Source: Candidatus Woesearchaeota archaeon (GTDB lineage Archaea; Nanobdellota; Nanobdellia; Woesearchaeales; DSVV01). From it: a stretch of DNA of 64,000 nucleotides. A model generated the notes under the pieces. It was not told the DNA's origin, did not search any database, and saw nothing but the letters and a program-made list of their open reading frames with translations. Positions 2,217 through 55,394 of this stretch are shown piece after piece (the first letter of the stretch is position 1; each line of letters begins with the position of its first letter). The stretch is from the NCBI GenBank assembly GCA_018661705.1, contig JABJHR010000001.1, positions 47,042 to 111,041 on the forward strand. The letters are read 5' to 3'. The position numbers and the translations under genes were made by a program.

Positions 2217-2410
2217 TAGTGAAAAAATAGCATCCGCCGGTGTTGAAGAGTAATACAATTTACTTTTCGATACAAAAAATAATAACGTGGCCAGGCGAGG
2301 TGAAACCGAGTAGGACTTTAGTCCGTCTGTGCCATTGTTGTTATTGTTTTTTGTTTATGTGTTTATGGCAACAAATGACTACAACACTAGGGCGGAGTTA
2401 ATGTCGCTTA
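2217..2410 (+). repeat. Family B structured repeat, degenerate and split by a Family A copy
   Basis: TAGTGAAAAAATAGCATCCGC..TGTTGAAGAGTAATAC (2218-2256) and ACTACAACACTAGG (2378-2391) match the two halves of 11971-12061. Confidence 0.7.
2272..2354 (+). repeat. Family A three-way-junction repeat, copy 1
   Basis: GGCCAGGCGA-GGT GAA ACC-GAGTA-GGACT TT AGTCC-GTCTGTGCC inside an AAAAATAATAAC/GTTATTGTTTTT stem. Confidence 0.9.
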
Positions 2411-2478
2411 CTCTATTTTTCTTTTTTCTGCAATGTATTATAACAACATTAATATATCTTAATGCATTACATCTTATT

Positions 2479-3198
2479 ATGAGTGGGAAATTTGTAATGG
2501 TTGAAGGTTTAGATGGAAGTGGTAAAGGTGTTGTAGTTAATACCCTAAAAGAATACTTTGATAACAAAGGATTAAAAGTATTTGATTTAAGAGAACATTG
2601 TAAAGAACATCTTTCTTTTCCAGAATTTAGTGAAATAGAAGAATATGATGTTATTATTAATGCTGAACCAACTTATAGTCATGTTGGAATCGCAATTAGG
2701 GATGAAATTATTAGAGAAAATGAAAGAAAGTATTCTGGGCTAAGTACTGCACATGCATTTGCACTTGATAGAGAAATTTTATACAAAAAATTATTAATTC
2801 CTGCACTTGAAAAAGGCAAAACTGTTATACAAGAAAGAGGATTAGTTACTAGTTTTGTTTATCAACCAATTCAATTAGAAAGAATTAGTCTAAAAGATAT
2901 TCTTAATATTCCTGGGAATAGATTAGCATTGAAATACAGACCTGATTTACTAATTATTACAAAAGTTGATCCTCAAGTTGTTATCCATCGTTTAAAAAAT
3001 AGAGAGAAAAAAGATAATGCAATATTTGAGAAATTAGTTTTTCAAAGGCAAGTTGCAAACAGGTATGAAAGTGAATGGTTAAGCAAATTGTTTTCAGGCA
3101 GAGGTTCACAAGTTCAATTTTTAGATACTAATTATCCCAAAACAGTTGAAGACACCCAAAAGGCTGCAATTGAAATGTGGGAAGAGTTTGATAAGTAG
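2479..3198 (+). CDS. tmk: thymidylate kinase
   Basis: FVMVEGLDGSGK P-loop, AEPT, FALDR, ERG...YQ and PDLLII. Start moved to ATG 2479 because the track's extension runs through repeats. Confidence 0.85.
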   Translation: MSGKFVMVEGLDGSGKGVVVNTLKEYFDNKGLKVFDLREHCKEHLSFPEFSEIEEYDVIINAEPTYSHVGIAIRDEIIRENERKYSGLSTAHAFALDREILYKKLLIPALEKGKTVIQERGLVTSFVYQPIQLERISLKDILNIPGNRLALKYRPDLLIITKVDPQVVIHRLKNREKKDNAIFEKLVFQRQVANRYESEWLSKLFSGRGSQVQFLDTNYPKTVEDTQKAAIEMWEEFDK

Positions 3199-3322
3199 TT
3201 CTAAGTTTTAAGTTATAAGTGGGTTTTAAGTAAATTAGTCAGTAGTATTAAGGTTATGTAGCATTACTTAGAACTAAATAACCACTTACCTACTTCAAAC
3301 TTACTACTTATAACTTAATACC
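3194..3322. repeat. Family C heptamer-based fold-back spacer
   Basis: G/T-rich left arm (AGTTCTA AGTTTTA AGTTATA) and complementary A/C-rich right arm (TTACTACTTATAACTT). Confidence 0.7.
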
Positions 3323-3424
3323 TATTTTTTAGTAATCTTTATATATTAATAGGGCTTTATGACTATGGTAAATAGCTAATTTAATCAAATTTACAATCCT
3401 ATAGGAACAAAAGGAGGGATATAC

Positions 3425-3700
3425 ATGTTAAGAATGAAAAGACTAACCGAAACATACGATATGAAAGTTTTTACTGATTCAGGAGAATATTTTGGAGATG
3501 TTGAAGAATCAATCATCACATCAAATAAAGTATTTGGATGGAGAGTTAAGAGTACAAAAAATTCATTTCTGAATAAAATCTTAGGAAGTGCAAAAGGAGT
3601 AATTGTTCCACACCAACTAGTTAAAAGCATTGGTGATATTATGATTATTTCTAAATCAGCTGTTCCTAGCTACAATCCAGAAGAAGACGATTTAGAATAA
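3425..3700 (+). CDS. PRC-barrel domain protein
   Basis: VFTDSGEYFGDVEE...VIVPHQLVKSIGDIMII; SD GGAGGG upstream. Confidence 0.85.
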   Translation: MLRMKRLTETYDMKVFTDSGEYFGDVEESIITSNKVFGWRVKSTKNSFLNKILGSAKGVIVPHQLVKSIGDIMIISKSAVPSYNPEEDDLE

Positions 3701-3812
3701 ATTTTTATTTTTACTTATTCTTTGTTTTATTTATTTAATTGTTTCTAGTCTTTTATTTCACACCTAATAACACACAAATAATATAAACAGTAATCATATC
3801 CTCCATAAAATA

Positions 3813-5297
3813 ATGATGACTGAAGGTATGGATGCATTAGATTTATTAGTTGCTTCTAGTAGAGAAAATAGATCAGAGAAGCCTCAAATTAAAAGAGCAA
3901 TAGTTAGCTTTAGTTATGATAGAAAATTAGAGTTTGATGAAGCTTGTAAAAAGGCGCAGGATAAGGCTGCCTTGGAAGAAAAACTTCAAAAACCTGGGAG
4001 AAGTCATGTTTTCTATAGGACATTAGATTATAAATTTAATGGGGAAGAAGTAGATTTTGTTAAATTTAATCTGTTAATTGGGGAAGTTCCCGGGGTTGTT
4101 TACACTTATCTTAATGTTATGCTTTCAGATTTAGAAGAAGTTAGTTTTGTTGTAAGTCCCTTATCAAAAGAAATACTTAATGAATGCAGAAAGATATATG
4201 GTGATTTTGGAAAAACAGTTCATGTAACTGATGAGCTTGATCCAGACCAAACATGGACAGATCTTAGTTTTTTTAATTCTTTTGCTGATAAAGGAGTCAG
4301 ACCCTTTCAAAATCTAGGAGAAGATGAACAGTTTTTATTGGTTCCAGGAGATATGCCATTTACTGACCAAGAAACAATGAATGATATTATTTATGATAAG
4401 AGAAACCAAGGTCATGATGTTATACTAAATTTTAATTATTTTTTTAATATGTTTTGTGGTCTTGATGTTGTTTATCCAAGAAGAAATGCACATTATCACA
4501 TATTAAATCCAGATGGAACAACTAACTCTGGGAAAGAATCTAATCTTGTTGTTATGAATAGTAGGATTCTACCTTATATCGGTCATTTTACAGATAGTAG
4601 AAAAAATGGCGGAGTAATAAAAGCATCTATTGATTTAATATTGGATGGCAAAGAAGTAATTAGTGAAAGCTATAATGAAGGTAATTCAAGAAGGTTAAGA
4701 GATATGGCTTTTGGTGAATGGAAAACACTATTTAGTAGATTAAGGTTAGCTGCAAAAGGAAACATGAGAGCAATTAGATCAATATTATATAATAAAATGG
4801 TAAAAGATCCAAGATCTAAGAAACAATTAGTGTTTGATATTTCTCATTTAAATAAATTAGCCTATGTATTAGCTGAGCTTAATCCTTTATTTAGATTTTA
4901 TACTCCTGGTTCAGATCCTGAAAATAAACATCCTAACATGGTAGCTCATCATGATTTCAGTAGAGTTAATGATTTAGATGCACCACAAGATTATGTTGGA
5001 TTTCTTGGCCCATTAAAGTATTGTGCTGAGAAAGGTTGGAATTTAGGACAAATTTATAGGAATGCAGGACTATTAAATGATTTTTTACCAGCAATGGCAA
5101 GATTAAAATCAGATCATTTATTTTTTGCAGAACATAATGCAATTGTTAATGATACTTCAAGGGGATTAGGTTTAGATAAGGATGTGTTTAATGGCGATGA
5201 TCTTAATTTACAGATATATACGAGACATCAATATCCGGGAATATTAAGACAATTACACAGATACGTAATAAGAAATAGAGTTACACCAAAGCAATAA
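3813..5297 (+). CDS. hypothetical protein, possible divergent GT-A/NTP-transferase fold
   Basis: 494 aa; LLVPGDMPF, GKESNL and DLDAPQD resemble MobA-like nucleotidyltransferase motifs. Confidence 0.5.
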   Translation: MMTEGMDALDLLVASSRENRSEKPQIKRAIVSFSYDRKLEFDEACKKAQDKAALEEKLQKPGRSHVFYRTLDYKFNGEEVDFVKFNLLIGEVPGVVYTYLNVMLSDLEEVSFVVSPLSKEILNECRKIYGDFGKTVHVTDELDPDQTWTDLSFFNSFADKGVRPFQNLGEDEQFLLVPGDMPFTDQETMNDIIYDKRNQGHDVILNFNYFFNMFCGLDVVYPRRNAHYHILNPDGTTNSGKESNLVVMNSRILPYIGHFTDSRKNGGVIKASIDLILDGKEVISESYNEGNSRRLRDMAFGEWKTLFSRLRLAAKGNMRAIRSILYNKMVKDPRSKKQLVFDISHLNKLAYVLAELNPLFRFYTPGSDPENKHPNMVAHHDFSRVNDLDAPQDYVGFLGPLKYCAEKGWNLGQIYRNAGLLNDFLPAMARLKSDHLFFAEHNAIVNDTSRGLGLDKDVFNGDDLNLQIYTRHQYPGILRQLHRYVIRNRVTPKQ

Positions 5298-5308
5298 AAA
5301 AGAATTAA

Positions 5309-6270: not shown

Positions 6271-6295
6271 TTTTTATTTATATTTCTTAAAAGAT

Positions 6296-6399
6296 AGAAA
6301 AAACAACAACAACTTAGGCACAGACGGACTTTTTCTTTCAGAAAAAATCCTACTCACCTCGCTATGCTCGGTTCGCCTGGCCATGCTATTGTTTTTTCT
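6296..6399 (-). repeat. Family A three-way-junction repeat, copy 2
   Basis: Minus strand: GGCCAGGCGA-ACC GAGCATAGCGA GGT-GAGTA-GGATTTTTT..AAAAAGTCC-GTCTGTGCC. Confidence 0.9.
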
Positions 6400-6413
6400 T
6401 TATTAAAATAAAA

Positions 6414-7145: not shown

Positions 7146-7243
7146 TTTTACACCCCTGATTGTTTTGAATTAGGATGGCATGGGGTTTTAAATAGTTTAT
7201 TATTGATTATTACATGATTTAAGAATATGTTGGTATTTGTTGA

Positions 7244-7432
7244 GTATATGCATAGCTCCTAACAAAGATGTTGTTGCTGCCGGTTATAGTGGCTGAAATC
7301 CCATTGAATAATTTATTTAAATCATGTTATGTAGTATATTATTGGATTTCAGTTCCAAATATCATAAACCTATAATGCCACTATAACAAATTTGAGGCAG
7401 TAACAACATCATAAAAGGAGCTATGCACATAC
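7244..7432. mobile_element. MITE-like element (189 bp, 17-bp terminal inverted repeats, 8-bp flanking direct repeat)
   Basis: GTATATGCATAGCTCCT (7244-7260) / AGGAGCTATGCACATAC (7416-7432), flanked by TTTGTTGA at 7236-7243 and 7433-7440; nested internal stems. Confidence 0.7.
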
Positions 7433-7484
7433 TTTGTTGAATAATATTTATATAACCTAATGGATTACTTAATTTTAATTTAAA

Positions 7485-10302: not shown

Positions 10303-10625
10303 TGTAGGGGGATGATTGACTATCGGTGTTTAATTATACTGAGGAAAGTCTGCCCATCAATGCTCTTCGGAGTTGAAAGTGCCACTCAATGAGATCCTTA
10401 ACAGGATGGCAACCACTCAGAAACGATACCACCTTGGAAATGGGATGATATGGCGAAGTTTCTTGCGAAAGAAATGAGTTCCCATTGACGTCTTTCAAGG
10501 AAAGGATGAAACGGTGAGCCCTGGCTGATGCAAGTACAGAATGTACGCTAAGTAGAATGTCAATGCACCTGTTCGTTGTTTAATCCAGCGAAGGTGAACA
10601 GAAGGCAGCTTACATTCCCTCTACA
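10303..10625 (+). ncRNA. rnpB: RNase P RNA
   Basis: GAGGAAAGTC (CR I), CAGAAAC, GATGAAACGG, GCAAG and AACAGAAGGCAGCTTAC (CR V); P1 TGTAGGGGGATG/CATTCCCTCTACA; TATA TTTATAAAA at 10273; T-tract downstream. Confidence 0.93.
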
Positions 10626-13222: not shown

Positions 13223-13311
13223 AAGAATGGGGATGTTTGGGGGGTTTAAATAGGTTTTGGAAAGGGAGAAATTTAATAATCTTGTTTGATGAAATAATAA
13301 TGTTATATGAT

Positions 13312-13405
13312 GAAAAAACAACAACATCGGCACAGACGGACTTTTTCTCTTTTTGTTCGAAAAAATCCTACTCAGCTTCGCTTTGCCTGGCCATGTTGTT
13401 TTTTC
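13312..13405 (-). repeat. Family A three-way-junction repeat, copy 3
   Basis: Minus strand: GGCCAGGCAA-AGC GAA GCT-GAGTA-GGATTTTTT..AAAAAGTCC-GTCTGTGCC. Confidence 0.9.
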
Positions 13406-13441
13406 TATAATATGGTAATAATCTTATTATTTTAAGAAAAA

Positions 13442-16975: not shown

Positions 16976-18022
16976 ATGGCAAGTAAGAGAGATGAATTAT
17001 TACTGAAAATAAGGCAGGAATTAGATAATTGTACAAGGCCATTATTCTTTTTTGATGATGATCCTGATGGTTTATCTAGCTTTCTTCAGCTTTATCGATA
17101 TAAAGAAGCAGGGAAAGGTGTTGTTGTTAAGATTCATCCTGTTTTGGATGAGAAATTCTTAAGAGCTGTTAAAGATTATGGTCCAGACAAGATATTTATC
17201 TTAGATATTCCTAAAGTGAGTGAATCATTTCTTCAAAAACTAAATTTGCCAATTGTTTATATTGATCATCATAATATTTTTGAACATAAACAAGATAATC
17301 TTATTTATTTTAACCCGCATGTTTTTGATGCAAAAGATGAAAGATGTGTTAGTTATTGGTGCCATAAAATAGTAAATCAAAAAGATGATTTATGGATTGC
17401 AATGGTTGGTTGTGTTGGTGATTGGTTTTTGCCTGAATTTAAAAATGAATTTGCAGAAAAATATCCTGATTTGTTAGATGCAAAAGTAAACAAACCAGAA
17501 GATGCTTTGTTTGGTTCTAAATTAGGAAAATTAATTAGAATATTTTCATTTATCCTGAAGGGGCAACATAAAGATGTTGTTGCAAGTATTAAAGTGCTAA
17601 CAAGAATAAAATCACCACACGAAATTCTTAATCAAGAAACATCTCAAGGAAGATTTGTTTATAAAAGATTTGTAGCAATTAACAAATATTATGAAGAATT
17701 AATCAATTCTATTGGTGAAAAGAATATTAATGGTAATGTTTTAGAATTTATGTACACAGAAAAACAATGGTCATTTACTTCTGATTTAAGTAATGAATTA
17801 TTATACAAATTTCCTGATAAAGTAATTATGGTCTGTAGAGAAAAAAGTGGAGAATTTAAATGCAGTCTTCGTTCAAGTAAATTTAAATTACCTAAAAGAA
17901 TTAATGAAGCATTAGAAGGGCTAACTGGTTATGGTGGTGGCCATGATTATGCATGTGGTGCTTGTGTGAAAGTTAGTGATTTCAAAGAATTTCTTAGTAG
18001 ATTTAAAAAATCCTTAAGTTAG
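16976..18022 (+). CDS. DHH/DHHA1 family phosphoesterase (RecJ/NrnA-like)
   Basis: DDDPDG, ILD, IDHH, SLRS and GGGH. Confidence 0.9.
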   Translation: MASKRDELLLKIRQELDNCTRPLFFFDDDPDGLSSFLQLYRYKEAGKGVVVKIHPVLDEKFLRAVKDYGPDKIFILDIPKVSESFLQKLNLPIVYIDHHNIFEHKQDNLIYFNPHVFDAKDERCVSYWCHKIVNQKDDLWIAMVGCVGDWFLPEFKNEFAEKYPDLLDAKVNKPEDALFGSKLGKLIRIFSFILKGQHKDVVASIKVLTRIKSPHEILNQETSQGRFVYKRFVAINKYYEELINSIGEKNINGNVLEFMYTEKQWSFTSDLSNELLYKFPDKVIMVCREKSGEFKCSLRSSKFKLPKRINEALEGLTGYGGGHDYACGACVKVSDFKEFLSRFKKSLS

Positions 18023-18207
18023 TTTTGAGTAATGGGTCTTGAGTTATGGGGGAGTTATCAGTAAGTAGTTCTGAGTATTGCTGATTTTTCTCAATACCAA
18101 TTAACCCATAACCAAATTTCATAACAAATTTACTTTAAACCAACTCATAACTCACTACTCAAAACCCAGAACCATTACTTCTTACTTCCAACTTAGAACT
18201 ACTTACT
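18020..18207. repeat. Family C fold-back spacer
   Basis: AGTTTTGAGTAATGGGTCTTGAGTTATG... / ...CTTCTTACTTCCAACTTAGAACTACTTAC; homologous to 19427, and to 24622 and 62962 in inverted orientation. Confidence 0.8.
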
Positions 18208-18928: not shown

Positions 18929-19428
18929 AGATTTATTTAGGAGCTGATCATGGTGGTTATGCATTAAAAGAAAAAATTGTAAAATATTTGGATGGGAAAA
19001 ATATTGATTATGAAGATTTAACTACTGATTTTGATCCAAAAGATGATTATCCAAATGTTGCAAAAGAAGTTGGAAAATTAGTAGCTTCTGAAATTGCAGA
19101 TGGAAAAAATACAAAAGGTATTCTAATTTGTGGAACAGGAACAGGAGTAAGTTTAGCTGCAAACAAAGTAAAAGGAATAAGGGCGGCTGCATTAACAACA
19201 GAAGATAAAGTTTTGTTAGCAAGGTTACACAATGATCTTAATATCTTATGTTTAGCAGGCTTAGAGTTTCCTTCAGATCTTCCAAGCAAGGTTAAGGGCA
19301 AATATAATAATTTACTTGACTTTTCAAAAGAATTTCCTGTGAAAAAAGCTATTCCTTTGATTGAAGTATTTCTAAATACCAAATTTGAAGGTGGCAGACA
19401 TAAGAAAAGAGTAGATATGATTTGTTAG
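18925..19428 (+). CDS. rpiB: ribose-5-phosphate isomerase B
   Basis: GADHGG, DYP, ICGTGTG, ANKVKGIRAA, HND.N and FEGGRH..R. Confidence 0.95.
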   Translation: MKIYLGADHGGYALKEKIVKYLDGKNIDYEDLTTDFDPKDDYPNVAKEVGKLVASEIADGKNTKGILICGTGTGVSLAANKVKGIRAAALTTEDKVLLARLHNDLNILCLAGLEFPSDLPSKVKGKYNNLLDFSKEFPVKKAIPLIEVFLNTKFEGGRHKKRVDMIC

Positions 19429-19580
19429 TTTTGAGTAATGGGTTTTGAGTTATGAGTGGGTCATTAGTAAGTAGTTATGAGTTTTGTTGTGTTTTCTTAA
19501 TACTAATTAACCCACAACCAAATCTTATGACAGATCTACTCAAGACCAACCCACTACACATAACTCAAAACACATAACCC
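19427..19580. repeat. Family C fold-back spacer
   Basis: AGTTTTGAGTAATGGGTTTTGAGTTATG..., closely matching 18020. Confidence 0.8.
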
Positions 19581-19652
19581 TTATATTATAATAATATACT
19601 ACTTATATAGTAATATTTATAAAGGAAAAGTTTTTCTTCTAGCTTAGATTAT

Positions 19653-19745
19653 GCACCGGTGGTCTAATGGCTACAGCATTATAGCTGCCATAAATGACTT
19701 CGGCCTTCCAAGCCGGGTATCTGGGTTCAAATCCCGGCCGGTGCA
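19653..19745 (+). tRNA. tRNA-Gly(TCC) with a 21-nt BHB intron in the D-loop (19673-19693)
   Basis: Acceptor stem GCACCGG/CCGGTGC+A; anticodon TCC at 19707-19709; T-arm CTGGG TTCAAAT CCCGG; the insert forms a bulge-helix-bulge. Confidence 0.92.
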
Positions 19746-20042: not shown

Positions 20043-20102
20043 GTTTGCTTTTTTATTTCTTTTTTTAATATTAATTCTTGGAAAATTCTTCTCTTTTTGA
20101 AA

Positions 20103-20286
20103 AAATTTGTGAGTGACATGTCCTAACGGACCTAGTGTTGTAGTGTGACATGCAGTGTAGCACTTTTCAACAATTGCGGATGCTCTCTTTTTCACGAGGA
20201 CTTTTCTTTGTTTAATTTCAGTGTTTTTTTATTTTTTGCTAGTACTTTGTTTACTAAAGAAAATTACACTTTTTTACTAGGATTTT
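20103..20286 (-). repeat. Family B structured repeat, full copy
   Basis: Reverse complement of 11903-12061 with scattered, partly compensatory substitutions. Confidence 0.9.
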
Positions 20287-20375
20287 TCTTTATTAATAAC
20301 TAATTTTCTCTATATTAACTAATTAAGACAATTTTAAGCATAAACTTAATAAATCTATAGATATAAGTTTACATA

Positions 20376-21101: not shown

Positions 21102-21102
21102 A

Positions 21103-23696: not shown

Positions 23697-23802
23697 TTTC
23701 TTACTAAATTTTTTTGCAAGCTTATGCTTGCATTTTTACTTTTTTATTTCTATGGTTGTTTTGTTCTAATCATGAATTCTATGTTTTAGAGTTAAATGTA
23801 TG

Positions 23803-24621: not shown

Positions 24622-24850
24622 GGTAAGTAGTTCTAAGTTGGAAGTAAGAAGTTGGTTGGTAGATAAAAAGTAAGTAATGAGTTTTGAGTTCTGGGTAATG
24701 TGTTGGTCTTGAGTAGATCTGTTATGAGGTTTGGTTATTGGTTAATTAGTATTGAAAAAATTCAATAATACTCAGAACTACTTACTGTTAGCCCACTCAG
24801 AACCCAAGACCCATTACTCAAAACTAAATTATCTACCTAAATACTTATTA
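24622..24850. repeat. Family C fold-back spacer
   Basis: Inverted homologue of 18020-18207 and 19427-19580. Confidence 0.8.
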
Positions 24851-35819: not shown

Positions 35820-35847
35820 TTGTTTCTTTTTGTTGGATTTTACAAAG

Positions 35848-35941
35848 AAAAAAATAACAACAATATAGGCACAGACGCATTTTTCCCTACGGAAAAAATA
35901 CTACTCGGCTACGCCTCGCCTGGCCATGCTGTTATTTTTTT
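35848..35941 (-). repeat. Family A three-way-junction repeat, copy 5
   Basis: Minus strand: GGCCAGGCGA-GGC GTA GCC-GAGTA-GTATTTTTTCC GTAG GGAAAAATGC-GTCTGTGCC. Confidence 0.9.
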
Positions 35942-35978
35942 AGTAAATAATTTAAACTAGCAGATAAATTAAATATGC

Positions 35979-37625: not shown

Positions 37626-37704
37626 TTGGTAAGATTTCTTTGTAAGGTTTATAAACGTTTGTGTTGTTTTGGTTTGATTTTGACGTGGTTTTATAGATGA
37701 TTGT

Positions 37705-37823
37705 GTAAAAAATAACGACAACAACGGCACAGACGGACTAAAGTCCTACTCGGCTGGTGCTTTGGAGTTCGTAGAACTCTCTTTCTTCGCACCACCTCGC
37801 CTGGCCATGTTGTTATTTTTTAC
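37705..37823 (-). repeat. Family A three-way-junction repeat, copy 6 (extended P2 arm)
   Basis: Minus strand: GGCCAGGCGA-GGTGGTGC..GAGTTC TAC GAACTC..GCACCAGCC-GAGTA-GGACT TT AGTCC-GTCTGTGCC. Confidence 0.9.
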
Positions 37824-37890
37824 TTCTGCGTTATATACCAAAGAATACTTTTTCGTAACATATATAAACCTGTACAGTTTAAAGAATCTC

Positions 37891-38406
37891 ATGAATTGGA
37901 CAAAACTATTATTTGTTTTAATTGTAGTATTACTTTATGTACCAATGGTTTTCTTAGGTGCAAATGTTTTCTTTCCTGAATATACTACTGGAAGTGGTGA
38001 TTCATATTATAGGGGTTATGAAAAATGTAACTTTCCAAAAGCAATTCCTTCAGAAGAATATGAAACTGAATTAACAGAAGATTATCAAGATTGTATTGAT
38101 GCATCACAAGAAGATGAAAAAGAATGGAAAGAAATTAAGAATGCATACAATGGAAATAAATTTGTATTCATTACTTTGTTTAATTTGATTATATTACTTT
38201 TAGCGTTGTTTGTAACTTTGTTTAATAGTAGTGTTATAATGGGTTTATTTTTAGGTGCAACAGTTTCAACATTCTCAGCAACAATGGCTTACTTTGAAAC
38301 TAATAGTAAATTAGGATTTGGTGTTTTAGTTGTGATTTTTTTCCTAGCATTGTTTTTCATTAGTAAAAAGAAAGATAGTTTTATGGATTGGAAGACTAAT
38401 AAATAA
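37891..38406 (+). CDS. membrane protein (4 TM, extracellular Cys pair)
   Basis: Hydrophobic segments; start moved to ATG 37891 because the track's extension reads through a repeat. Confidence 0.75.
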   Translation: MNWTKLLFVLIVVLLYVPMVFLGANVFFPEYTTGSGDSYYRGYEKCNFPKAIPSEEYETELTEDYQDCIDASQEDEKEWKEIKNAYNGNKFVFITLFNLIILLLALFVTLFNSSVIMGLFLGATVSTFSATMAYFETNSKLGFGVLVVIFFLALFFISKKKDSFMDWKTNK

Positions 38407-38448
38407 TTCTTTTATTCTTTAGTTTTTAACAAGGGTGGTTTCTTTATC

Positions 38449-38726
38449 TATTTGGAAATCATCATCTTGGCCGCGAATTAAATAGATTTCTTGTAGAAAT
38501 TATAACTTAAAGGAAATCTATGTCATAAAGGATTTTGTCTTGAATTGTTTAATTCACCTTAAGGCCAGGACGAAGATGATTTTATTTATTTATTTGGAAA
38601 TCATCATCTTGGCCGCGAATTAAATAGATTTCTTGTAGAAATTATAACTTAAAGGAAATCTATGTCATAAAGGGCTTTGCCTTAAATTGTTTAATTCACC
38701 TTAAGGCCAGGACGAAGATGATTTCC
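38449..38726 (+). repeat. two tandem 134-nt structured elements (period 142), candidate ncRNA
   Basis: 38449-38582 and 38591-38724 differ at only 4 positions; nested stems. Confidence 0.9.
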
Positions 38727-38730
38727 TTAA

Positions 38731-39519
38731 TTATCCAAATGTAGAAAACTTACTCATAAATATAAACTCATAATTACTGCCATTAACAAATGCTTTCTTG
38801 TCTGTGATGGAAAATGCATATGTTTCTGGATCTAATGGGAGAATTTGAACCTCTAAATCATATTCTGTTGTAAGGCTTTGTAAACATTCTACACAAATGG
38901 TTGTCATGTCTTGAGTTTGCATTGGAACGTATTCTACTAATAAATCATGTATTGTGCCTAATCTGCAGGGCATGTCTAATTGAAATTTCTTTAATACTTT
39001 AGAAGCACTACCTTGGGTTATTGTAACTAGCATTTCTGTTTCTACTAAAACATTATCTCTTGCAATAATTATTTCTGTATCTGGTTCATCCATAAAAACT
39101 TCTATTCCTTGTTCTGCAAATGGTTGTAATCCAAATAATTTTGCATTTAACGCAGCATCAATTGAATAACCTAACTGTTTTTCTAAATCATTTCTCGGAA
39201 TTAAATAAGCATCATCATAATAAAACAAAAATGGTATTGAGGAAATAGGATCTGTATTATCAGGAAGCTCATAATAACCAGCTTGTACTCCATTATTAAT
39301 CAAGGCTTCAACAGTTGCTTCTTCTAACGCACTATTAACAAAACTTGTAACACTAACACCTAATGCATCTAATTGTTGAGTAGATTTAGTTGTTACCTTT
39401 ACATCAACTCCACTAGACAAAGAATTAAAATACCATAAGAAAACAACAAAGATTAACACAACAAGACCTAGTATCATGAATAAGGTAATTTGTGATTTCT
39501 TCCCTCTTTTATTTATCAT
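38731..39519 (-). CDS. class III signal-peptide (archaeal pilin-like) protein
   Basis: KRGKKS|QITLFMILGLVVLI N-terminus. Confidence 0.7.
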   Translation of the reverse strand: MINKRGKKSQITLFMILGLVVLIFVVFLWYFNSLSSGVDVKVTTKSTQQLDALGVSVTSFVNSALEEATVEALINNGVQAGYYELPDNTDPISSIPFLFYYDDAYLIPRNDLEKQLGYSIDAALNAKLFGLQPFAEQGIEVFMDEPDTEIIIARDNVLVETEMLVTITQGSASKVLKKFQLDMPCRLGTIHDLLVEYVPMQTQDMTTICVECLQSLTTEYDLEVQILPLDPETYAFSITDKKAFVNGSNYEFIFMSKFSTFG

Positions 39520-39638
39520 ATTATTTATTTTAGAGAAAGTAATATAAAAAGGTTTCTAAGTAAAACAACAAATATTTCTTAAGAATTAATATGTGAAATT
39601 GACAAAATGTAGGCAAAGACACCAAAGTTTATAGGAAA

Positions 39639-42404: not shown

Positions 42405-42647
42405 ATGGCATTAAATGCTAAAAGTTTAGGACTAGCAGGTGGAATTCTATGGGGAGTTGGTTTATTGATATTAACCTTAGTTTCTGTTTGGACTGGTTAT
42501 GGGACTGCAATGCTTAATGGTATCGCAAGTATATATCCGGGATATAGTATAGGCTATCTTGGGGCAGTAGTTGGATTAATATATGGTTTTGTAGATGCAT
42601 TTATTGGATTGTATGTATTTGGTTGGCTGTATAATAAGTTAGAATAA
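42405..42647 (+). CDS. small membrane protein (family often labelled holin-like)
   Basis: LNAKSLGLAGGILWG...YPGY...G...G.IYGFVD...FGWLYN; SD GAGGTGA. Confidence 0.75.
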   Translation: MALNAKSLGLAGGILWGVGLLILTLVSVWTGYGTAMLNGIASIYPGYSIGYLGAVVGLIYGFVDAFIGLYVFGWLYNKLE

Positions 42648-42729
42648 TTTTTTTCTTTTTTTTCTTTTACTGGGGCGGAGCCAATACAGCTCACTAAACT
42701 TTTTTGTTTATTACAAACTATAGAAATAA

Positions 42730-44511
42730 CTATTTCAACTTAACGCCAACTTCATCTAATTGTTCATTATCAACATTACTTGGAGAACTTTCCATTAATG
42801 ATTCTGCATTCTTTGTTTTAGGGAAGGCTATAACTTCTCTGATGTTTTCTTCTTTACATACCATTGCAGCTAATCTGTCTAGACCAAAAGCAATTCCACC
42901 ATGTGGGGGTGCTCCATACTTGAATGCATCTAATAAAAATCCAAATTTAGATTTAATTTCATCATCTTTTAGCCCAATTGCTTTGAAAACATTTTCTTGT
43001 ATTTCTCTACTATGGATTCTTATTGAACCACCACCTAGTTCAACACCATTTAGCGCTAAATCATAGGCTTTTGCTCTAACTTTAGATGGATCTGTTAATA
43101 ACATTCCCATATCTTCATCTTTTGGAGATGTGAATGGATGATGCATTGCTATATGTCTTTTAGCGTCTTCATCATATTCCATCATTGGAAAATCTACTAC
43201 CCAAATAAAACTCCATTCATCTTCTGGAATTAATTCTAATTTTTTAGCTAAGAATAATCTTAATTGTCCTAAAGCAATATCAACAATATGGTGTTTGTGA
43301 TCTCCAACTATTAATAATAAATCACCAATGTTAGCAGATACTTTTTCCATAAGTTGTTTTTGTAATTCTTCACTAAAAAATTTAGCAGACATTCCTTCTA
43401 ATTTCTTTTTAGTATCAGTTCCTTCTACTTTAACCCAAGCTAAACCTTTTGCATCATAAATCTTTGCAACTTTCTCTAATTCATCAACTTCTTTTCTTGA
43501 GAACTTTGCACAACCTCTTGCATTAATACATTTAATGCTTCCGCCATTCTTAATAGTTTCTGTGAAAATTTTGAAGGATGATTTTTCACCAATCTCTGAA
43601 ATATTTTTTAATTGCATTCCAAATCTTACATCTGGTTTATCACTACCATATTTAGCCATTGCATCTGCAAATGTAATTCTTGGAAATGGAGTTTTGATTT
43701 TAACATCAACTGCTTTAAACACATCTTTCATTAACCCCTCCATTATTTCATATACATTTTCTTCATCGACAAAACTCATTTCAACATCTATCTGTGTAAA
43801 CTCTGGTTGTCTGTCTGCTCTTAAATCTTCGTCTCTAAAACATCTTGCAATTTGAACATATCTGTCAAAACCACTAAGCATTAGAAGTTGTTTGAATATT
43901 TGTGGTGATTGTGGTAAAGCATAAAACTTTCCTTTATGAACTCTGCTAGGAACTAAATAATCTCTTGCACCTTCTGGTGTTGATTTAGCTAAAATTGGTG
44001 TTTCAATTTCTAAAAAACCTTGCTTATCAAAATAATCTCTAGTTGCTTTTACAATTTTATGTCTTGTGATAATATTTTTTTGAACACAATTTCTTCTTAA
44101 GTCTAAATATCTATATTTTAATCTCATTTCTTCTGTTGTTGTTGTTTGTTCTTCAATATCAATAGGAATTGTTTCTGATTTATTTAAAACTGTAATTCTA
44201 TCACAAATAACTTCAATAGATCCTGTTATGATTTCTACATTATCTTGGCCTTGTGGTCTTGTTCTAACACGGCCCGTTACTTGAATAACATCTTCTCTTT
44301 TTAATGACTCAGCTGCTTTATGTGCATCTGCATCATTTTTTGGATCAAAAACTACCTGCGTAATACCATAACGATCCTTTAAGTAGAAAAAGATAAGTCC
44401 ACCTAAATTCTTAACATGCTGTACCCATCCACATAAGGTAACCTTCTTACCATTATCCTTTAAAGCTAGCTCTCCACATGTATTTGTTCTATAAGCAGTT
44501 GCTTTTGCCAT
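42730..44511 (-). CDS. aspS: aspartate--tRNA ligase, bacterial type (GAD insertion)
   Basis: RTNTCGEL, STPEGARDYLVPSR, LPQSPQIFKQ, FRDEDLRADRQPEFTQ, HHPFT and GAPPHGG; 593 aa. Confidence 0.96.
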   Translation of the reverse strand: MAKATAYRTNTCGELALKDNGKKVTLCGWVQHVKNLGGLIFFYLKDRYGITQVVFDPKNDADAHKAAESLKREDVIQVTGRVRTRPQGQDNVEIITGSIEVICDRITVLNKSETIPIDIEEQTTTTEEMRLKYRYLDLRRNCVQKNIITRHKIVKATRDYFDKQGFLEIETPILAKSTPEGARDYLVPSRVHKGKFYALPQSPQIFKQLLMLSGFDRYVQIARCFRDEDLRADRQPEFTQIDVEMSFVDEENVYEIMEGLMKDVFKAVDVKIKTPFPRITFADAMAKYGSDKPDVRFGMQLKNISEIGEKSSFKIFTETIKNGGSIKCINARGCAKFSRKEVDELEKVAKIYDAKGLAWVKVEGTDTKKKLEGMSAKFFSEELQKQLMEKVSANIGDLLLIVGDHKHHIVDIALGQLRLFLAKKLELIPEDEWSFIWVVDFPMMEYDEDAKRHIAMHHPFTSPKDEDMGMLLTDPSKVRAKAYDLALNGVELGGGSIRIHSREIQENVFKAIGLKDDEIKSKFGFLLDAFKYGAPPHGGIAFGLDRLAAMVCKEENIREVIAFPKTKNAESLMESSPSNVDNEQLDEVGVKLK

Positions 44512-44555: not shown

Positions 44556-45020
44556 CTATTCTAATAAACGGTTTGTTTTGTTACGGTAATCATTAATTTT
44601 ATTGTGATTTAATCTCTCAATGAAATCAGTTATTTCTGCAATAAAATCTTCAGCAATTTCAATTGCTTGTTTTGTTTCATCTTTACTAACATCAAAATCA
44701 ACATAATATTGTTTGTCAACTCTCTCAGATTTTGCATTTGATATGTTTTTATTGTCAATCTCAAAAACATTTTTTAGTAAAATTATTGAACCAGTATGAT
44801 TTTCACATTTTATACCTGTTCTAAAAAGAAGTGCCAATAGGCAGTGGTACATTGAGTAATAAGCAAGAGCAACAGAATCTTCTAAGTTTCCTATTTTTAA
44901 CAAAGCTTTAGCAGATGATAATGATTTAGAAGATTTATGTAAATATGCTTCTTTAATTTCCTCACTTGGTTCGACTAGTTGTAATTTTCCTTCTTTGTAT
45001 AACTTAATCAAAAAATTCAT
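44556..45020 (-). CDS. HEPN domain protein (UPF0332-like)
   Basis: AYYSMYH...NH.G...R.DKQY; overlaps the upstream MNT gene. Confidence 0.85.
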   Translation of the reverse strand: MNFLIKLYKEGKLQLVEPSEEIKEAYLHKSSKSLSSAKALLKIGNLEDSVALAYYSMYHCLLALLFRTGIKCENHTGSIILLKNVFEIDNKNISNAKSERVDKQYYVDFDVSKDETKQAIEIAEDFIAEITDFIERLNHNKINDYRNKTNRLLE

Positions 45021-45546
45021 TTTTCTCAAAATACTCCTCGACACCTTTTATTATAATATGATCTTTTTCAACCTCTTTAATTAATAGGTTTTTTTTATCA
45101 TAAATTCCAATCTTCACATTAATCTTTGAGTTAATTGCTTCAACCTCTTGTTTTATTTTTTTATCTCTTGTTTCAATATAAATATCTATGTCACTGTGTT
45201 TTTTTGCAAGGTCTTTTGCATAGGATCCAAATAAGATTGCTAATTTTATTTCAGGGTGTTTTTTTATTCTATCAATTATTAATCTTAATTTAGGATACTT
45301 TTCTAATAAATAGAATAATTTGTTTAATTCTGTAATACATGCAAACTGCTTTGCTTCAAGTGTTTTTTTAAGAAAGAAAACTTTGTTTTTTCCTTCTACT
45401 TTATAATCAACAATGTTTTGCTCATAAAGTTCATTTATTTTTCTTAACACAGTCATCTGATTTGTGTTGAGAAGTTTAGCAAGACCTCTAATGTGGTTTT
45501 TGTTTTTTAGTAATTGTTTTATAATGTTGTAACAAATTTGTGACAT
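45004..45546 (-). CDS. HTH-fused minimal nucleotidyltransferase (MNT)
   Basis: N-terminal HTH; LFGSYAK...SDIDI. Confidence 0.88.
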   Translation of the reverse strand: MSQICYNIIKQLLKNKNHIRGLAKLLNTNQMTVLRKINELYEQNIVDYKVEGKNKVFFLKKTLEAKQFACITELNKLFYLLEKYPKLRLIIDRIKKHPEIKLAILFGSYAKDLAKKHSDIDIYIETRDKKIKQEVEAINSKINVKIGIYDKKNLLIKEVEKDHIIIKGVEEYFEKNEFFD

Positions 45547-51393: not shown

Positions 51394-51445
51394 TTAGTAT
51401 TTCTGTTTTCTTGGAAAAATAAATAATTGTTGTTACTAAATTTAT

Positions 51446-52153: not shown

Positions 52154-52274
52154 TTCTTGTCTAAAAATAAACTTCTATAAAAAAGTTATTGAACTATACA
52201 ATCTATGATTTATCAAATAATTAACAAAACCACTCCCCAATAGTCCTAAAATCTTATATAAATAAATACATAAT

Positions 52275-54089
52275 ATGTATGATATGGGTAGTCCGAAGGC
52301 TAATGTATTATTTGAAGTGAGTTGGGAAGTATGCAACAAAGTAGGTGGGATTTATACAGTTGTGAAATCAAAAGCAGACTTAATTAATTCAGCATACGAA
52401 GATTATTACTTAATCGGGCCTTATGTAGAGAACAAAGCAAAAGAAACATTTAATGAAGAAACACCTTCTAAAGAATTAGCAAAAATCTTTTCAGAATTAG
52501 CAGGACAAGGAATAACTTGTTATTTTGGAGAATGGTTAATTAAAGGAAAACCAAAAGTAATTTTGATGGATGTTTCTAAAGCAACAGATCAAATTAATTC
52601 CCTAAAAAAAAGATATTGGGATAACTATCAAATTGATTCTCTTAATGCAGAATGGACATTTGAAGAACCAATGTTATGGTCGACTGCTGCTGGAATGTTA
52701 ATTGAGAAATTTGCACAACAAAATGAAAACAAAAACATAGTTACACATTGTCATGAATGGATGGCTGGTTTTGCTGCTTTGCATTTAAAATCTGTAAATG
52801 CTAACGTTGGAACTGTGTTTACAACACATGCAACAATGTTAGGTAGAACATTATGTGGTTCAGGACGACAATTGTATGAAGAACTAGAACATTTAGATCC
52901 TAAAAAAGAAGCATATAACTACAATATTCAAGATAAATACCTAACAGAGCTTGCATGTGCACAAAATGCTGATGTTTTCACAACTGTTTCTGAAATTACG
53001 TCAATGGAAGCTGAGAAAATTCTTGGAAGAAAAGCAGATGTTTTATTGTTAAATGGTTTAGATATTGAAAAATTTCCTAGTTTTGAGGAACTTTCTATTA
53101 AACATAGAATTTATCGAGAGAAAATTAGAGAATTTGTTGCATATCATTTTTTCCCTTATTACTCTTTTGATTTATCACAAACATTATTGTTTTTTATTGT
53201 GGGAAGGTATGAATTCAAAAATAAAGGAATTGATATTTTCATTAAAGCTTTAGGTAAACTAAATCAAATGATGAGAGAAAATAATTCTAAAAAAACTATT
53301 ATTGTGTTTTTCTGGATTCCACATGAAGTACATGGTGCAAAATTAGAATTATCTGAAAATAAAATGAATTATTTGCATCTGAAGGATTTTGTCGTGGACA
53401 ACCAAAAGCATGTTCAACAACAAATTTTAAATCATATTATTGGTTCAGAAAAACATGTTGAATCATCAGAACACTTATCTACGCAAGCAATGTTTTCTGA
53501 TGAATTTCTGTTAGGGGCAAGAAAACTAAATCTTAAATTTAAAAAACAAGGTAATCCTTTACTTGTAACTCATAATTTATCAGACGAGAAAAATGATGAA
53601 ATTATAAAAGCACTTCTTGCTGAAGGTCTTGATAATAAAGAAGATGATAAAGTTAAAGCTATTTTTTATCCTGTTTATCTTACTGGTGTTGATGGATTAA
53701 TTGATCTTCCATATTATGATTGTTTGCAAGGTTGTCATTTCGGTTTATTCCCTAGTTATTATGAACCCTGGGGTTATACACCATTAGAAAGTGCTGCACT
53801 TGGTGTTCCTTCATTAACAACTGACTTAGGAGGGTATGGTAGATTTTTATTAAGTAAAAAAGAAGGGAACGATGGGGTTTATGTATTAAATAGGTTTGGT
53901 GTGAATGAAAATAAAGTAATTAATGATTTTTCTAAATCTTTGTTTGATTATACTTTGTTGAGAGAAAAAGAAAGAGTTGAGCAAAAAATGTTAGCAAAGA
54001 AAGTTGCAGGTCTTGCAGATTGGAGTCAATTTGTTAAATTTTATTTTGAGGCGCACAATAAAGCATTGGAAAAAAGAGGAGGAAATTAA
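52275..54089 (+). CDS. glycogen synthase, GT3 family
   Basis: FEVSWEVCNKVGGIYTV, HEW, FTTHATMLGR, GRYEFKNKG and PSYYEPWGYTPLE. Confidence 0.93.
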   Translation: MYDMGSPKANVLFEVSWEVCNKVGGIYTVVKSKADLINSAYEDYYLIGPYVENKAKETFNEETPSKELAKIFSELAGQGITCYFGEWLIKGKPKVILMDVSKATDQINSLKKRYWDNYQIDSLNAEWTFEEPMLWSTAAGMLIEKFAQQNENKNIVTHCHEWMAGFAALHLKSVNANVGTVFTTHATMLGRTLCGSGRQLYEELEHLDPKKEAYNYNIQDKYLTELACAQNADVFTTVSEITSMEAEKILGRKADVLLLNGLDIEKFPSFEELSIKHRIYREKIREFVAYHFFPYYSFDLSQTLLFFIVGRYEFKNKGIDIFIKALGKLNQMMRENNSKKTIIVFFWIPHEVHGAKLELSENKMNYLHLKDFVVDNQKHVQQQILNHIIGSEKHVESSEHLSTQAMFSDEFLLGARKLNLKFKKQGNPLLVTHNLSDEKNDEIIKALLAEGLDNKEDDKVKAIFYPVYLTGVDGLIDLPYYDCLQGCHFGLFPSYYEPWGYTPLESAALGVPSLTTDLGGYGRFLLSKKEGNDGVYVLNRFGVNENKVINDFSKSLFDYTLLREKERVEQKMLAKKVAGLADWSQFVKFYFEAHNKALEKRGGN

Positions 54090-54257
54090 GGTTTTAAGTA
54101 AGTAGTAAGAGGTAAGAAGTGGGTAAATAGTAAATTAGTTATTAGTTTTTTGGTATTTGATTTTTGTGTGAAGAACAAATAATAAAAACTGAATAACTAC
54201 TTACTTGTCAACTTATCACCCACTTCAGACTTCAAACTTCAAACTTATTACTTCAAG
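54089..54257. repeat. Family C fold-back spacer
   Basis: AAGTAAGTAGT..AAGTGGGT / ACTACTTACTT..ACCCACTT..ACTTCAAACTTCAAACTT. Confidence 0.65.
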
Positions 54258-54270
54258 TCTATAATTTAAA

Positions 54271-55254
54271 ATGACTGAACTAAGAAAAGACTATCTGTTG
54301 GAAAGATATGTTATAATTGCAGCTGGTAGAGGAAAAAGGCCACATCAATTTACAGATGAGAAAAAAGAAACCTCTGCAAAAAAATGTTTTTTCTGTCCAG
54401 GTAGTGAAGATCAGACTCCTAAAGAAATTTATCGTGTTGGAAGTGCCAATGATTGGAAAATAAGAGTTTTTCCTAATAAATTTGCAGCAGTTAACGAAAA
54501 TAGGGATAAGAATGATGCAGAAATAAAAACACATAATGAATTTTTTACATTTGCAGAAGGTGTTGGAAATCATGAAGTAGTTGTAGAAACACCCGATCAT
54601 GAAAAACAATTAGTTGATTTAGATGTTGATGAGATGGTTGATGTATTTAAGACATATATTCTAAGAATCAAAGAATTAGAACAAAAAAAAGATGTAAAAT
54701 ATGTTCTTGTTTTTAAGAATCATGGAAAAGATGCAGGAACTAGCCTAGTTCATTCTCATTCACAAATTGTTGCATATAATTTAGTTCCTACAATTATTCA
54801 ACAAAAAGAAAAAGCAATTGCTAAATATGCAGAAAAAGCTGCAAATAATAATTCAGAACCTCATTGCGCCTATTGCAAAATATTAAACATTGAAAAAACT
54901 AGCGATAGAAAAGTTTTTGAAAATAATAATTTTGTTTGCTTTACACCGTATGCGTCAAGAATGCCTTATGAAGTCTTATTTTTCCCCAAAAGGCATGTTG
55001 TGAGTGTAAAATATCTTAATGATGGTGAATTATATGATTTATGTGATCTCTTAAAAAAAGTTTTAGTTAAATTAAAAGAATTTAATGCATCTTATAATTT
55101 TTATTTGCATAATGGAACTGGCAAAGAACATCAATTTCATTTTCATGTTGAACTTTTACCTAGAATTACTAAATGGGCAGGGTTTGAGCTAGGCAGTGAA
55201 ACAATCATTAATACAACTTCTCCAGAAGATGCTGCTTTGTTTTATAGGGAATAA
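54271..55254 (+). CDS. galT: GalT-family sugar-1-phosphate nucleotidylyltransferase
   Basis: ELRKD, R.KRP, CFFCPG.E, NKF, FKNHG..AGTSL.HSHSQ and GFELG. Confidence 0.88.
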   Translation: MTELRKDYLLERYVIIAAGRGKRPHQFTDEKKETSAKKCFFCPGSEDQTPKEIYRVGSANDWKIRVFPNKFAAVNENRDKNDAEIKTHNEFFTFAEGVGNHEVVVETPDHEKQLVDLDVDEMVDVFKTYILRIKELEQKKDVKYVLVFKNHGKDAGTSLVHSHSQIVAYNLVPTIIQQKEKAIAKYAEKAANNNSEPHCAYCKILNIEKTSDRKVFENNNFVCFTPYASRMPYEVLFFPKRHVVSVKYLNDGELYDLCDLLKKVLVKLKEFNASYNFYLHNGTGKEHQFHFHVELLPRITKWAGFELGSETIINTTSPEDAALFYRE

Positions 55255-55285
55255 TTTCTAATTTCTTTAGAAAATAATGCACGGG

Positions 55286-55394
55286 CAAAAAATAACAACA
55301 ATAATGGTTCAGACGGTCTTTTTCTCTCTTTGTTCGAAAAAGCCTTACTCGGCTCATTATATTCGCCTCGCCTGACCATTGTTGTTATTCTTTG
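55286..55394 (-). repeat. Family A three-way-junction repeat, copy 7
   Basis: Minus strand: GGTCAGGCGA-GGC GAATATAATGA GCC-GAGTA-AGGCTTTTT..AAAAAGACC-GTCTGAACC. Confidence 0.88.

Follow-up and report, generated by a model that had tools for sequence, protein, structure and literature searches.

Several families of short intergenic repeats, among them Correia/NEMIS, ERIC, RUP and BOX, fold into long hairpins when they are transcribed. According to the accessible text of one study, some families of repetitive extragenic palindromic (REP) sequences have no dedicated transposase (PMC3733652). [quoted passage not shown] Here we analyse a dispersed three-way-junction element in a stretch of 64,000 nucleotides from Candidatus Woesearchaeota archaeon (assembly GCA_018661705.1, contig JABJHR010000001.1, positions 47,042 to 111,041 of the forward strand), which we call the window and to whose numbering all coordinates refer unless a contig is named. 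An original prediction, made from the letters of the window alone, had described seven such elements. We find that the element family is real and undescribed, and that it is closest in behaviour to bacterial REP sequences, bacterial interspersed mosaic elements (BIMEs) and REP doublets forming hairpins (REPINs), and to structured MITEs. We give about an even chance to the reading of the element as a REP-like, lineage-specific dispersed repeat, restricted to a single DPANN order, whose fold is selected in single-stranded form.

The source genome (G000) amounts to 1.65 Mb in 19 contigs, with 30.5% G+C and a completeness of 92.8%. The genome is archaeal, because a scan with Rfam 15 located an archaeal RNase P RNA at 10304-10624. 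Window sites were compared mainly with G001, a congeneric genome that has the second-highest number of element copies.

A three-armed fold maintained by compensatory change

In order to find further copies we used a covariance model, R1, built from 51 copies (two from the window and 49 from other public genomes). Its matches in the window are exactly the seven copies of the original prediction. Across 81 matches in G000 the unit is 90-165 nt long (median 108). The window copies have the layout P0 / GGCCAGGC / GA / P2 / GAGTA / P3 / GTCTGTGCC. P0 is an outer stem in which an A-rich 5' arm pairs with a T-rich 3' arm, followed by a short internal loop; it provides the element with terminal inverted repeats, a classical MITE trait. 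The GC-rich P1 pairs GGC-CAGGC with GUCUG-U-GCC, leaving one U bulged, and bears both P2 and P3, the latter stacked on P1, whose 3' strand it abuts without a linker. Tandem G-A pairs extend P2, and a 3-nt R-U-A linker leads into P3. By the word that precedes P2, the 81 copies fall into subfamilies F1 (..GGYGA, 45 copies), F1b (..GAYGA, 21) and F2 (..GCUGAUGA, 9), with three F3-like copies, in which the G-A pairs are replaced by Watson-Crick pairs, and three of other forms. The window copies, with the parts of the first one, are as follows (J12 and J23 are the junction segments before and after P2).

2267-2357, plus strand: copy 1 (R1 84.6 bits, E 7e-18); F1 in its shortest form, with a 45-nt core
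2273-2286, plus strand: copy 1, 5' strand of P0, A-rich, paired with 2337-2353
2289-2296, plus strand: copy 1, 5' strand of P1 (GGCCAGGC), paired with 2325-2333, one U bulged
2297-2298, plus strand: copy 1, J12 (GA), near-invariant in the alignment
2299-2307, plus strand: copy 1, P2 hairpin (GGU-GAA-ACC), whose middle pair covaries
2308-2312, plus strand: copy 1, J23 (GAGUA), near-invariant in the alignment
2313-2324, plus strand: copy 1, P3 hairpin (GGAC-UUUA-GUCC), with a covarying third pair
2325-2333, plus strand: copy 1, 3' strand of P1 (GUCUG-U-GCC), which includes the bulge, a U in 78/86 sequences
2337-2353, plus strand: copy 1, 3' strand of P0 with an oligo-T end, read from the sequence
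6293-6404, minus strand: copy 2 (R1 80.3 bits); F1, P2 lengthened by tandem GA; spacer also occupied in G001
13305-13414, minus strand: copy 3 (R1 81.6 bits); F1, J12 = AA
23798-23916, minus strand: copy 4 (R1 66.3 bits); F1, P1 variant GGCUGGGU / GUCCAUGCC, GAAUA
35844-35947, minus strand: copy 5 (R1 92.2 bits); F1; spacer also occupied in G001
37702-37828, minus strand: copy 6 (R1 67.3 bits); F1, with a 45-nt P2
55282-55400, minus strand: copy 7 (R1 63.8 bits); GGUCAGGC / GUCUGAACC; antisense to both neighbours, which are on the plus strand

The predicted layout holds for all seven copies, and the swapping of the closing pairs of P2 is as it had been described; the change of P1 from CAGGC/GTCTG to TGGGT/GTCCA is present in the copy at 23798. 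The junction, said to be nearly invariant, departs from the consensus in two copies: the one at 13305 has AA instead of GA, and the one at 23798 has GAATA. The triloops (GAA/GTA, of the GNA kind) and tandem GA of the original prediction were recovered, but GTTA, TTTA and CTTG tetraloops are common besides. The strict pattern CAGGCGA..GAGTA..GTCTG has four matches in the window, with 0.00 expected from 100 shuffles.

The fold was examined in an alignment of 86 matches (83 distinct) taken from the window, the rest of the genome and at least eight other genomes. Standard pairs fill 96.3% of cells, and two-sided changes occur at 29 of the 30 pairs among the distinct sequences. The covariation score is 0.512 against 0.158 for column shuffles, was reached by none of 500 shuffles, and falls to 0.08-0.12 when the partners are slid by one to three columns. 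This alignment was fitted to R1 and is hence biased toward the modelled structure; a plain MAFFT alignment analysed with RNAalifold gave identical helices, with 22 of 30 pairs compensated. All 13 pairs of P0 covary (92.7% of cells paired), and P1 is paired in 99.5-99.6% of cells. The middle pair of P2 is C-G in 40 sequences and G-C in 34, and the third listed pair of P3 (alignment columns 97/135) is C-G in 37, U-G in 32 and U-A in 12. These data show that the three-armed fold is maintained by compensatory change, and the selection on structure proposed for the seven window copies extends to the whole family.

The junction varies far less. Among 85 aligned sequences J12 has G in 82 and A in 81, and the five positions of J23 are G in 80, A in 82, R in all (G 68, A 17), U in 85 and A in 85. 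J12 is thus G-A and J23 begins with G-A in 80-82 of the 85, which by sequence alone is the tandem G-A, A-G arrangement of a k-junction. The three bases 5' of J12 (GGC, GAU or GAC) can pair with GUC, and the junction-proximal pairs of P1 show one-sided, pairing-preserving changes (G-U 66 and A-U 8; C-G 66 and U-G 9). The base bulged from P1 is U in 78 of 86 sequences. In 68 of 85 sequences the word G-T-A-G runs from J23 into the opening base of P3 (in 17 it is A-T-A-G), and a C-G-T-C word spans the 3' foot of P3. The loops are mostly GNA triloops, GTTA, TTTA or CTTG tetraloops and tandem GA, the commonest being C(GAA)G, C(GTA)G, C(GTTA)G and C(TTTA)G.

Strand specificity, orientation and gene context

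Non-Watson-Crick cells of the alignment comprise 156 G-U or U-G against 18 A-C or C-A, with G-U to A-C ratios of 37:12 in P0, 77:2 in P1, 7:0 in P2 and 35:4 in P3. Additionally, of the two strands the sense strand gives the more stable fold in 86/86 sequences with RNA parameters and in 83/86 with DNA parameters. We conclude from the G-U excess and the stability of the sense strand that selection acts on a single-stranded form, either RNA or one DNA strand, and not on a symmetric duplex.

The strand bias noted earlier holds within the window (6 of 7 copies) and on its contig, where 10 of 11 copies lie on one strand, but it does not extend to the genome: 44 copies are on the minus strand and 37 on the plus strand, neighbouring copies share a strand in 30 cases and are opposed in 38 (permutation p 0.86), and 41 of 81 copies agree with the local coding-strand majority. 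The skews of GC and AT largely track the coding strand, the contigs are unordered, and a bias by replichore gains no support.

Gene context was assessed with a simple caller of open reading frames (ORFs), taking ATG-started ORFs of at least 70 aa and background spacers of at least 60 nt. By this measure 78 of 81 copies lie between two called genes, two are at contig ends and one is in a 73-aa ORF. The 78 spacers are tandem in 42 cases, divergent in 23 and convergent in 13, compared with a background of 494/236/106, and the copies in tandem spacers are sense in 26 cases and antisense in 16. The upstream gene is co-oriented with the copy in 39/78 cases, and the downstream gene in 49, with 29 opposed, a weak excess (p about 0.03, normal approximation). 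In the window two of the seven copies are antisense between tandem genes and three are in divergent spacers; copy 5 is antisense to both of its plus-strand neighbours, a MacB-type permease and VIT1. Placement irrespective of flanking gene direction, which had been proposed from the window, is therefore borne out by spacer types that match background proportions.

Distribution of the element

With R1 we count 81 or more copies in G000, compared with 40 from a regular expression alone. The scan accepted matches with E up to 0.01 and scored 150 of 1194 candidates; therefore 81 is a minimum. A single copy was counted on each of contigs C19 (215 kb) and C6 (125 kb), compared with 11-12 on contigs of 116-256 kb, a difference that could reflect uneven spread or mixed binning.

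Of 61 related genomes, G000 included, 18 have the element according to R1, among them 10 of 27 within the family. Single genera are divided as well, with 2/5, 2/4 and 1/4 genomes carrying it. Match counts in the relatives run from at least 66 in G001 through 29, 18, 14, 10, 8 and 8 down to zero. In an evenly drawn sample of 150 other genomes of the phylum the element is present in eight, all from the same DPANN order. A pattern scan of one genome per species returned 55 loci, of which 52 have the fold and three, in bacterial records, do not; a metagenome scan gave at least 94 stretches among the matches listed. The single match in viral contigs is GC-rich and unstructured, has no R1 match and is attributable to chance. 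Within the genomes sampled, the family is confined to one DPANN order, of Woesearchaeota-type genomes, and is patchy within it.

Several public records titled 'uncultured Methanosarcinales archaeon' (loci L026, L027, L031 and others) carry the element. For at least two of the three such genomes these titles look wrong, because the match coordinates equal those of G019, from the same family, and G153, from the same order.

In the window, the Rfam 15 threshold was reached only by the RNase P RNA and one tRNA, and at the copies the best sub-threshold matches are to unrelated families (E 0.016-10). The expectation that the element would lie outside known Rfam families was correct, as nothing matched at or near threshold. 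We found no description of it in literature on DPANN MITEs, Woesearchaeota noncoding RNAs, tagged REP sequences, the core words or k-junctions, although the supplementary tables of the MITE census (PMC11602168) may list it.

Turnover of sites between related genomes

Two contigs of G001 are syntenic with the window. Copies are present there too, in the same relative orientation, at three of the seven sites (2267, 6293 and 35844). At these shared sites the copies of the two genomes differ through compensated substitutions in P0, P2 and P3; each has the common variant of its own genome, and the spacer around them is no longer alignable. Two sites, 13305 and 55282, have other DNA in G001 (about 900 bp at the former) and no copy, and the remaining two are in rearranged or genome-specific DNA. 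Copy 6 is located at the left edge of 2 kb unique to G000 (37658-39637). This segment encodes ORFs of 214 and 262 aa with no Pfam match, and 34 bp of it remain in G001.

G001 in turn has copies at places without one in G000. In one such case, a 1.4-kb insertion found only in G001 (G001:C1:61351-62752) consists of a reverse-strand gene between two direct units, each made of the element and the upstream module described below; its counterpart in G000 (42647-42730) is the module alone. Here the repeats mark a site of gene gain or loss between close relatives. The spacer upstream of tmk (thymidylate kinase) is occupied in both genomes of the genus, and none of the tmk orthologues in five element-bearing genomes from other genera of the same family has a copy within 1.5 kb. 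The consensus of P0 also differs from genome to genome. The turnover of sites and the genome-specific P0 consensus together indicate spread, replacement or homogenisation at the DNA level. No target-site duplication was detected: the longest word shared by the two flanks averages 3.68, compared with 3.63 +/- 0.11 for shuffled pairs (53/81 copies).

Search for a mobilising enzyme

No enzyme candidate had been recognised in the window, and a comparison of its 63 ORFs with Pfam agrees, returning housekeeping genes only. Genes between closely spaced copies elsewhere in G000 are also housekeeping genes, for example a riboflavin cluster. The multicopy proteins of G000 amount to six pairs, with no family of more than two members at 50% identity.

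The families searched were Y1, TnpB, reverse transcriptase, DDE_Tnp_1, rve and IS110. Y1_Tnp (PF01797) has no match in G000; it is present in 21 of the 61 genomes and as one gene in G001. Across these genomes the element and Y1 occur together in nine, the element alone in nine, Y1 alone in 12 and neither in 31. TnpB is absent from all five genomes searched, and no reverse transcriptase was found in G000 or G001. DDE_Tnp_1 (PF01609), rve (PF00665) and IS110 (PF01548) have no match in either genome, other transposase families not having been searched. The two genomes with most copies therefore have none of the usual transposases searched for here, save one IS200-type gene in G001.

That gene encodes a 164-aa Y1_Tnp (transposase IS200-like) protein at a contig end (L073:5270-6031, with L055). 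It starts 116 nt past a copy whose P0 3' arm is shortened, and has its own hairpins at both ends. Judged from its sequence, the locus looks like the insertion of an IS200-type element into a copy. In G011 and G013 the Y1 genes are flanked by other hairpins and not by the element. The original prediction had proposed, as one possibility, an HUH enzyme akin to REP-associated tyrosine transposases (RAYT), and had suggested looking for copies beside a Y1, RAYT, TnpB or other nuclease gene. The HUH/RAYT link gains no support from our results: Y1 is absent from G000 and does not track the element across genomes, the sole adjacent Y1 gene looks inserted, and TnpB was not found in the five genomes searched.

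Flanking modules, half copies and other repeats

A conserved module of about 35 nt, of two types that each contain a small hairpin, precedes 29 of the 81 copies, and its end lies 17-29 nt (mostly 22-27) ahead of the R1 start. Downstream of several copies there is an inverted module as well, which results in a composite palindrome of about 200 nt. Three modules adjoin window copies.

2216-2250, plus strand: module type b (CTAGTGA..GCATCCGC..GTTGAAGAG), upstream of copy 1
2379-2413, minus strand: inverted module type a, downstream of copy 1, read from the sequence
55418-55453, minus strand: module type a (GTGAGTGACATGTCC-TTCG-GGACCTAGT..), upstream of copy 7 when read along that copy

The stretch 2379-2413 is probably non-coding, because homologues of the next gene align only from residue 19-32. 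Among module-bearing copies the downstream gene is co-oriented in 14 of 29 and not in 15, and this even split indicates that the module is part of the repeat and not a host promoter. A degenerate TATA-like word follows the module, about 24 nt before the inner P0, the same spacing as at the RNase P RNA gene. We found no promoter shared upstream of all copies; the position-wise composition shows AT-richness and a TTATAC-like word abutting P0. The mini-hairpin of the module covaries (loops TTCG, TACG and TCC), and modules occur with or without the element: two inverted modules without it are at about 20080-20300 and a further one is at 42660-42700.

Partial copies exist too. Some G001 copies have 5' halves in front of them that stop directly after the G-A of J12, and one is trailed by a 3' half; G000 has two solo 3' halves. 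An insert of about 48 nt with two hairpins (GTTA and TTTA loops) occupies the same position in the P0 arm of five or six otherwise different copies, which suggests a site-specific small element targeting a TTGTTG word. Its loci in G000, all outside the window, are as follows.

C14:131026: insert of about 48 nt
C16:7489: insert of about 48 nt
C3:122531: insert of about 48 nt
C3:124881: insert of about 48 nt
C11:24397: insert of about 48 nt
C1:13079: insert of about 48 nt

Other features of the window were recorded in passing. A stretch of about 190-220 bp at 7237-7461 recurs in at least seven places in G001 at 85-92% identity, several of them at contig ends, and is a further repeat family, possibly the end of an insertion sequence (IS) or a MITE. 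A repeat of about 150 bp at 18008-18193, 19426-19591 and 24655-24832 gives at least a dozen matches in G001, in either orientation and with identities of 71-82%. The tRNA gene at 19653-19745 is 93 nt long, a size that implies an intron. The tRNA and RNase P RNA genes have a TTTATAAA box about 24-30 nt upstream, the local promoter consensus. At 44556-45546, adjoining HEPN and nucleotidyltransferase genes resemble a toxin-antitoxin module.

What the fold may be selected for

The behaviour of the family, dispersed between genes, patchy, selected for structure and strand-specific, is that of REP sequences, as had been suspected from the window. On the reading to which we give an even chance, the family would spread and homogenise within genomes at the DNA level, and the near-invariant junction would be the putative docking site of a trans-acting factor. 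The fold would be read mainly in transcripts, where it may act like REP/BIME and Correia-type repeats. With P0 an inverted repeat, each strand finishes in a hairpin and T run, and transcription could be stopped from either side; the P0 hairpin with its oligo-U could stop or protect transcripts arriving from either direction. The copies show no preference for sites where such bidirectional stopping would help.

From sequence features, we consider it somewhat more likely than not that the fold is read mainly in transcripts, and leave a considerable, smaller chance to single-stranded DNA (ssDNA). Towards RNA points the retention of two wobble pairs, G-U in P1 (66 of 83 sequences) and U-G in P3 (32 of 82). 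The apex of P2 in F3 is C(UUCG)G or C(UCCG)G in five of seven sequences, counted by eye. A subfamily with a long P2, found in several genomes of different families, has GUU/GUU triplets and a U-G pair by the loop; the triplets flank the inner helix in 20 and 18 of 21 sequences by eye, the automatic parse being ambiguous in register, and the flanking helices covary. A search with a 10-kb stretch listed no RNA data set containing this organism, and contigs from three metatranscriptomes of the same study gave only short stray matches at 85-95% identity, none of them over copies.

Several observations weigh against this reading. Action in transcripts would require half of the copies to have a promoter of their own, given an upstream gene co-oriented in 39 of 78, and the module with its degenerate TATA-like box is found on 29/81 only. 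The commonest loops are GNA triloops closed by C-G and GTTA or TTTA tetraloops, which are classic stable hairpin loops of DNA and are not typical of RNA; under the RNA and DNA parameters of ViennaRNA all triloops have equal energy. A conserved extrahelical T in a GC-rich stem also fits recognition as ssDNA. Intact copies make up nearly the whole set, and two species have three of the sites in common; this could equally reflect a host function at each site. No clean pair of filled and empty sites was found, the spacers of G000 and G001 being too diverged at every site examined; insertion is therefore deduced and not seen.

Among the alternatives, the one that survives best, although unlikely, is that the element is the substrate of an ssDNA transposon, its junction and bulged T being recognised by an HUH (Y1/RAYT-like) or other enzyme that leaves no target duplication. 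The strand-specific fold, the lack of target-site duplication, the extrahelical T, the dominance of GNA, GTTA and TTTA loops, and the half copies and small hairpin repeats at a fixed position in P0 all speak for such a substrate, and the G-T-A-G 5' of P3 recalls the GTAG tag of REP sequences, as far as the accessible text on these goes (PMC3733652). Against this alternative, Y1_Tnp is absent from G000 and also from G023, G019 and G047, which have 8-18 copies each; its co-occurrence with the element corresponds to an odds ratio of about 2.6 among genomes that are related and not independent; no element lies close to the Y1 genes in G011 and G013; and TnpB, DDE_Tnp_1, rve and IS110 are missing from the genomes searched for them. 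Additionally, orientation is not clustered along contigs, and UNCG loops and several of the conserved G-T positions would be costly in DNA.

Somewhat less likely still, in our estimation, are multicopy stand-alone genes for a small RNA of about 90-110 nt, with their own promoter and an oligo-T terminator and a core that binds a protein or catalyses a reaction. Conserved G-U pairs, the UNCG loops of F3 and the GUU/GUU motif speak for such genes, and P0 joins the 5' end to a U-rich 3' end. The tandem G-A lies by one helix with the third helix on the opposite strand, as in the k-junctions of the available account (PMC10573300), the TATA-like box of module-bearing copies is spaced as at the RNase P RNA, and orientation is independent of neighbours. 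However, 43 of the 61 genomes are without the element, close kin included, which argues against a core function. Copy number ranges from zero to over 80, no promoter signal is common to all copies, and some copies sit inside tight operon-like clusters such as the riboflavin genes. The 3-nt bulge of the k-junction is also missing unless the top three pairs of P1 open.

Equally doubtful is a proposal that makes the junction an RNA module of a new kind, protein-binding or even catalytic, whose core is k-junction-like and hammerhead-shaped; the repeat that carries it would multiply in DPANN archaea without a known transposase or reverse transcriptase. If this were true, structured elements would be copied in these reduced genomes by a route not yet described, or a host ribonucleoprotein would use dozens of RNAs with variable arms.

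We regard it as very improbable that the copies are ordinary intrinsic terminators or 5' leaders of neighbouring genes. Each copy has a stable hairpin and a T run, and there is the weak excess of co-oriented downstream genes (49 of 78 against 29 opposed); yet the upstream gene is co-oriented in just half of cases, 16 copies are antisense between tandem genes, the 23 of 78 in divergent spacers are the background share, and one conserved core stands beside unrelated genes. Because spacer types match background proportions, the copies are not terminators or leaders, and the test for terminators proposed with the original prediction gave the same answer, as they follow neither transcript orientation nor 3' ends.

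Least credible of all is a hammerhead-type self-cleaving ribozyme on a repeat: three stems with stem II extended by tandem G-A, the CUGAUGA-P2-GAA of F2 (9/81; F1b reads CAGAUGA), a GUC triplet before the P1 3' strand and an open, bulged P1 like that of the type I ribozymes in eukaryotic repeats in the accessible text of PMC3088659 stand against the lack of any Rfam hammerhead match at E up to 10 (cmscan, 13 variant loci), a single sub-threshold Hammerhead_1 (RF00163) match, located elsewhere, in five high-copy genomes, covariation that places the first two bases of the heptamer (C-A or C-U) in P1 pairs, and the missing A15.1-U16.1 pair and unpaired H17.

Comparison with known systems

Small DPANN genomes have little spare DNA, yet about 80 copies persist here under strict structural rules. 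The element offers a covariation-rich three-way junction for structural work, and a test case for how archaea that lack RAYT-type enzymes come to have REP-like repeats and keep them; in practical terms, it fragments assemblies and flags places where close relatives have gained or lost genes. Should the junction bind a protein, or the element be a discrete RNA, it would be among the most abundant noncoding RNAs of these organisms.

Type I hammerheads resemble the element in their three-stem junction, open and bulged stem I and G-A pairs at the base of stem II, but the element has no unpaired C3/U4, A15.1-U16.1 pair or H17. The k-junctions of thiamine pyrophosphate (TPP) riboswitches and DUF-3268 share the positions of the tandem G-A/A-G, the third helix on the opposite strand and possible coaxial stacking (accessible text of PMC10573300); here there is no 3-nt loop 5' of the G-A unless three P1 pairs open, and the connector is R-U-A. 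The ends of IS200/IS605 elements and palindrome-associated transposable elements (PATEs) likewise combine imperfect, strand-specific hairpins carrying an extrahelical T with a lack of target duplication (see PMC6006769). However, IS200/IS605 hairpins are single and subterminal, at asymmetric ends, and depend on a Y1 TnpA, whereas the present element does not track Y1.

Like Correia/NEMIS, ERIC, RUP and BOX, the element is an intergenic non-coding unit of about 100 nt with terminal inverted repeats. It differs from MITEs in lacking a target duplication and a related IS among DDE_Tnp_1, rve and IS110, and in conserving an internal junction in place of the termini. From REP sequences, which are single hairpins of 20-40 bp, it differs in being a three-way junction of 90-165 nt on a stem of about 25 bp; it is archaeal, its inverted dimers are rare, there is no cognate Y1 in G000, and it favours neither the 3' side of genes nor convergent spacers. 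It nevertheless shares with REP/BIME/REPIN the character of high-copy, extragenic, GC-rich palindromes that are patchy and lineage-specific and keep their structure while their sequence varies, and it has words that recall the REP tags, G-T-A-G at the 5' foot of P3 and C-G-T-C over its 3' foot.

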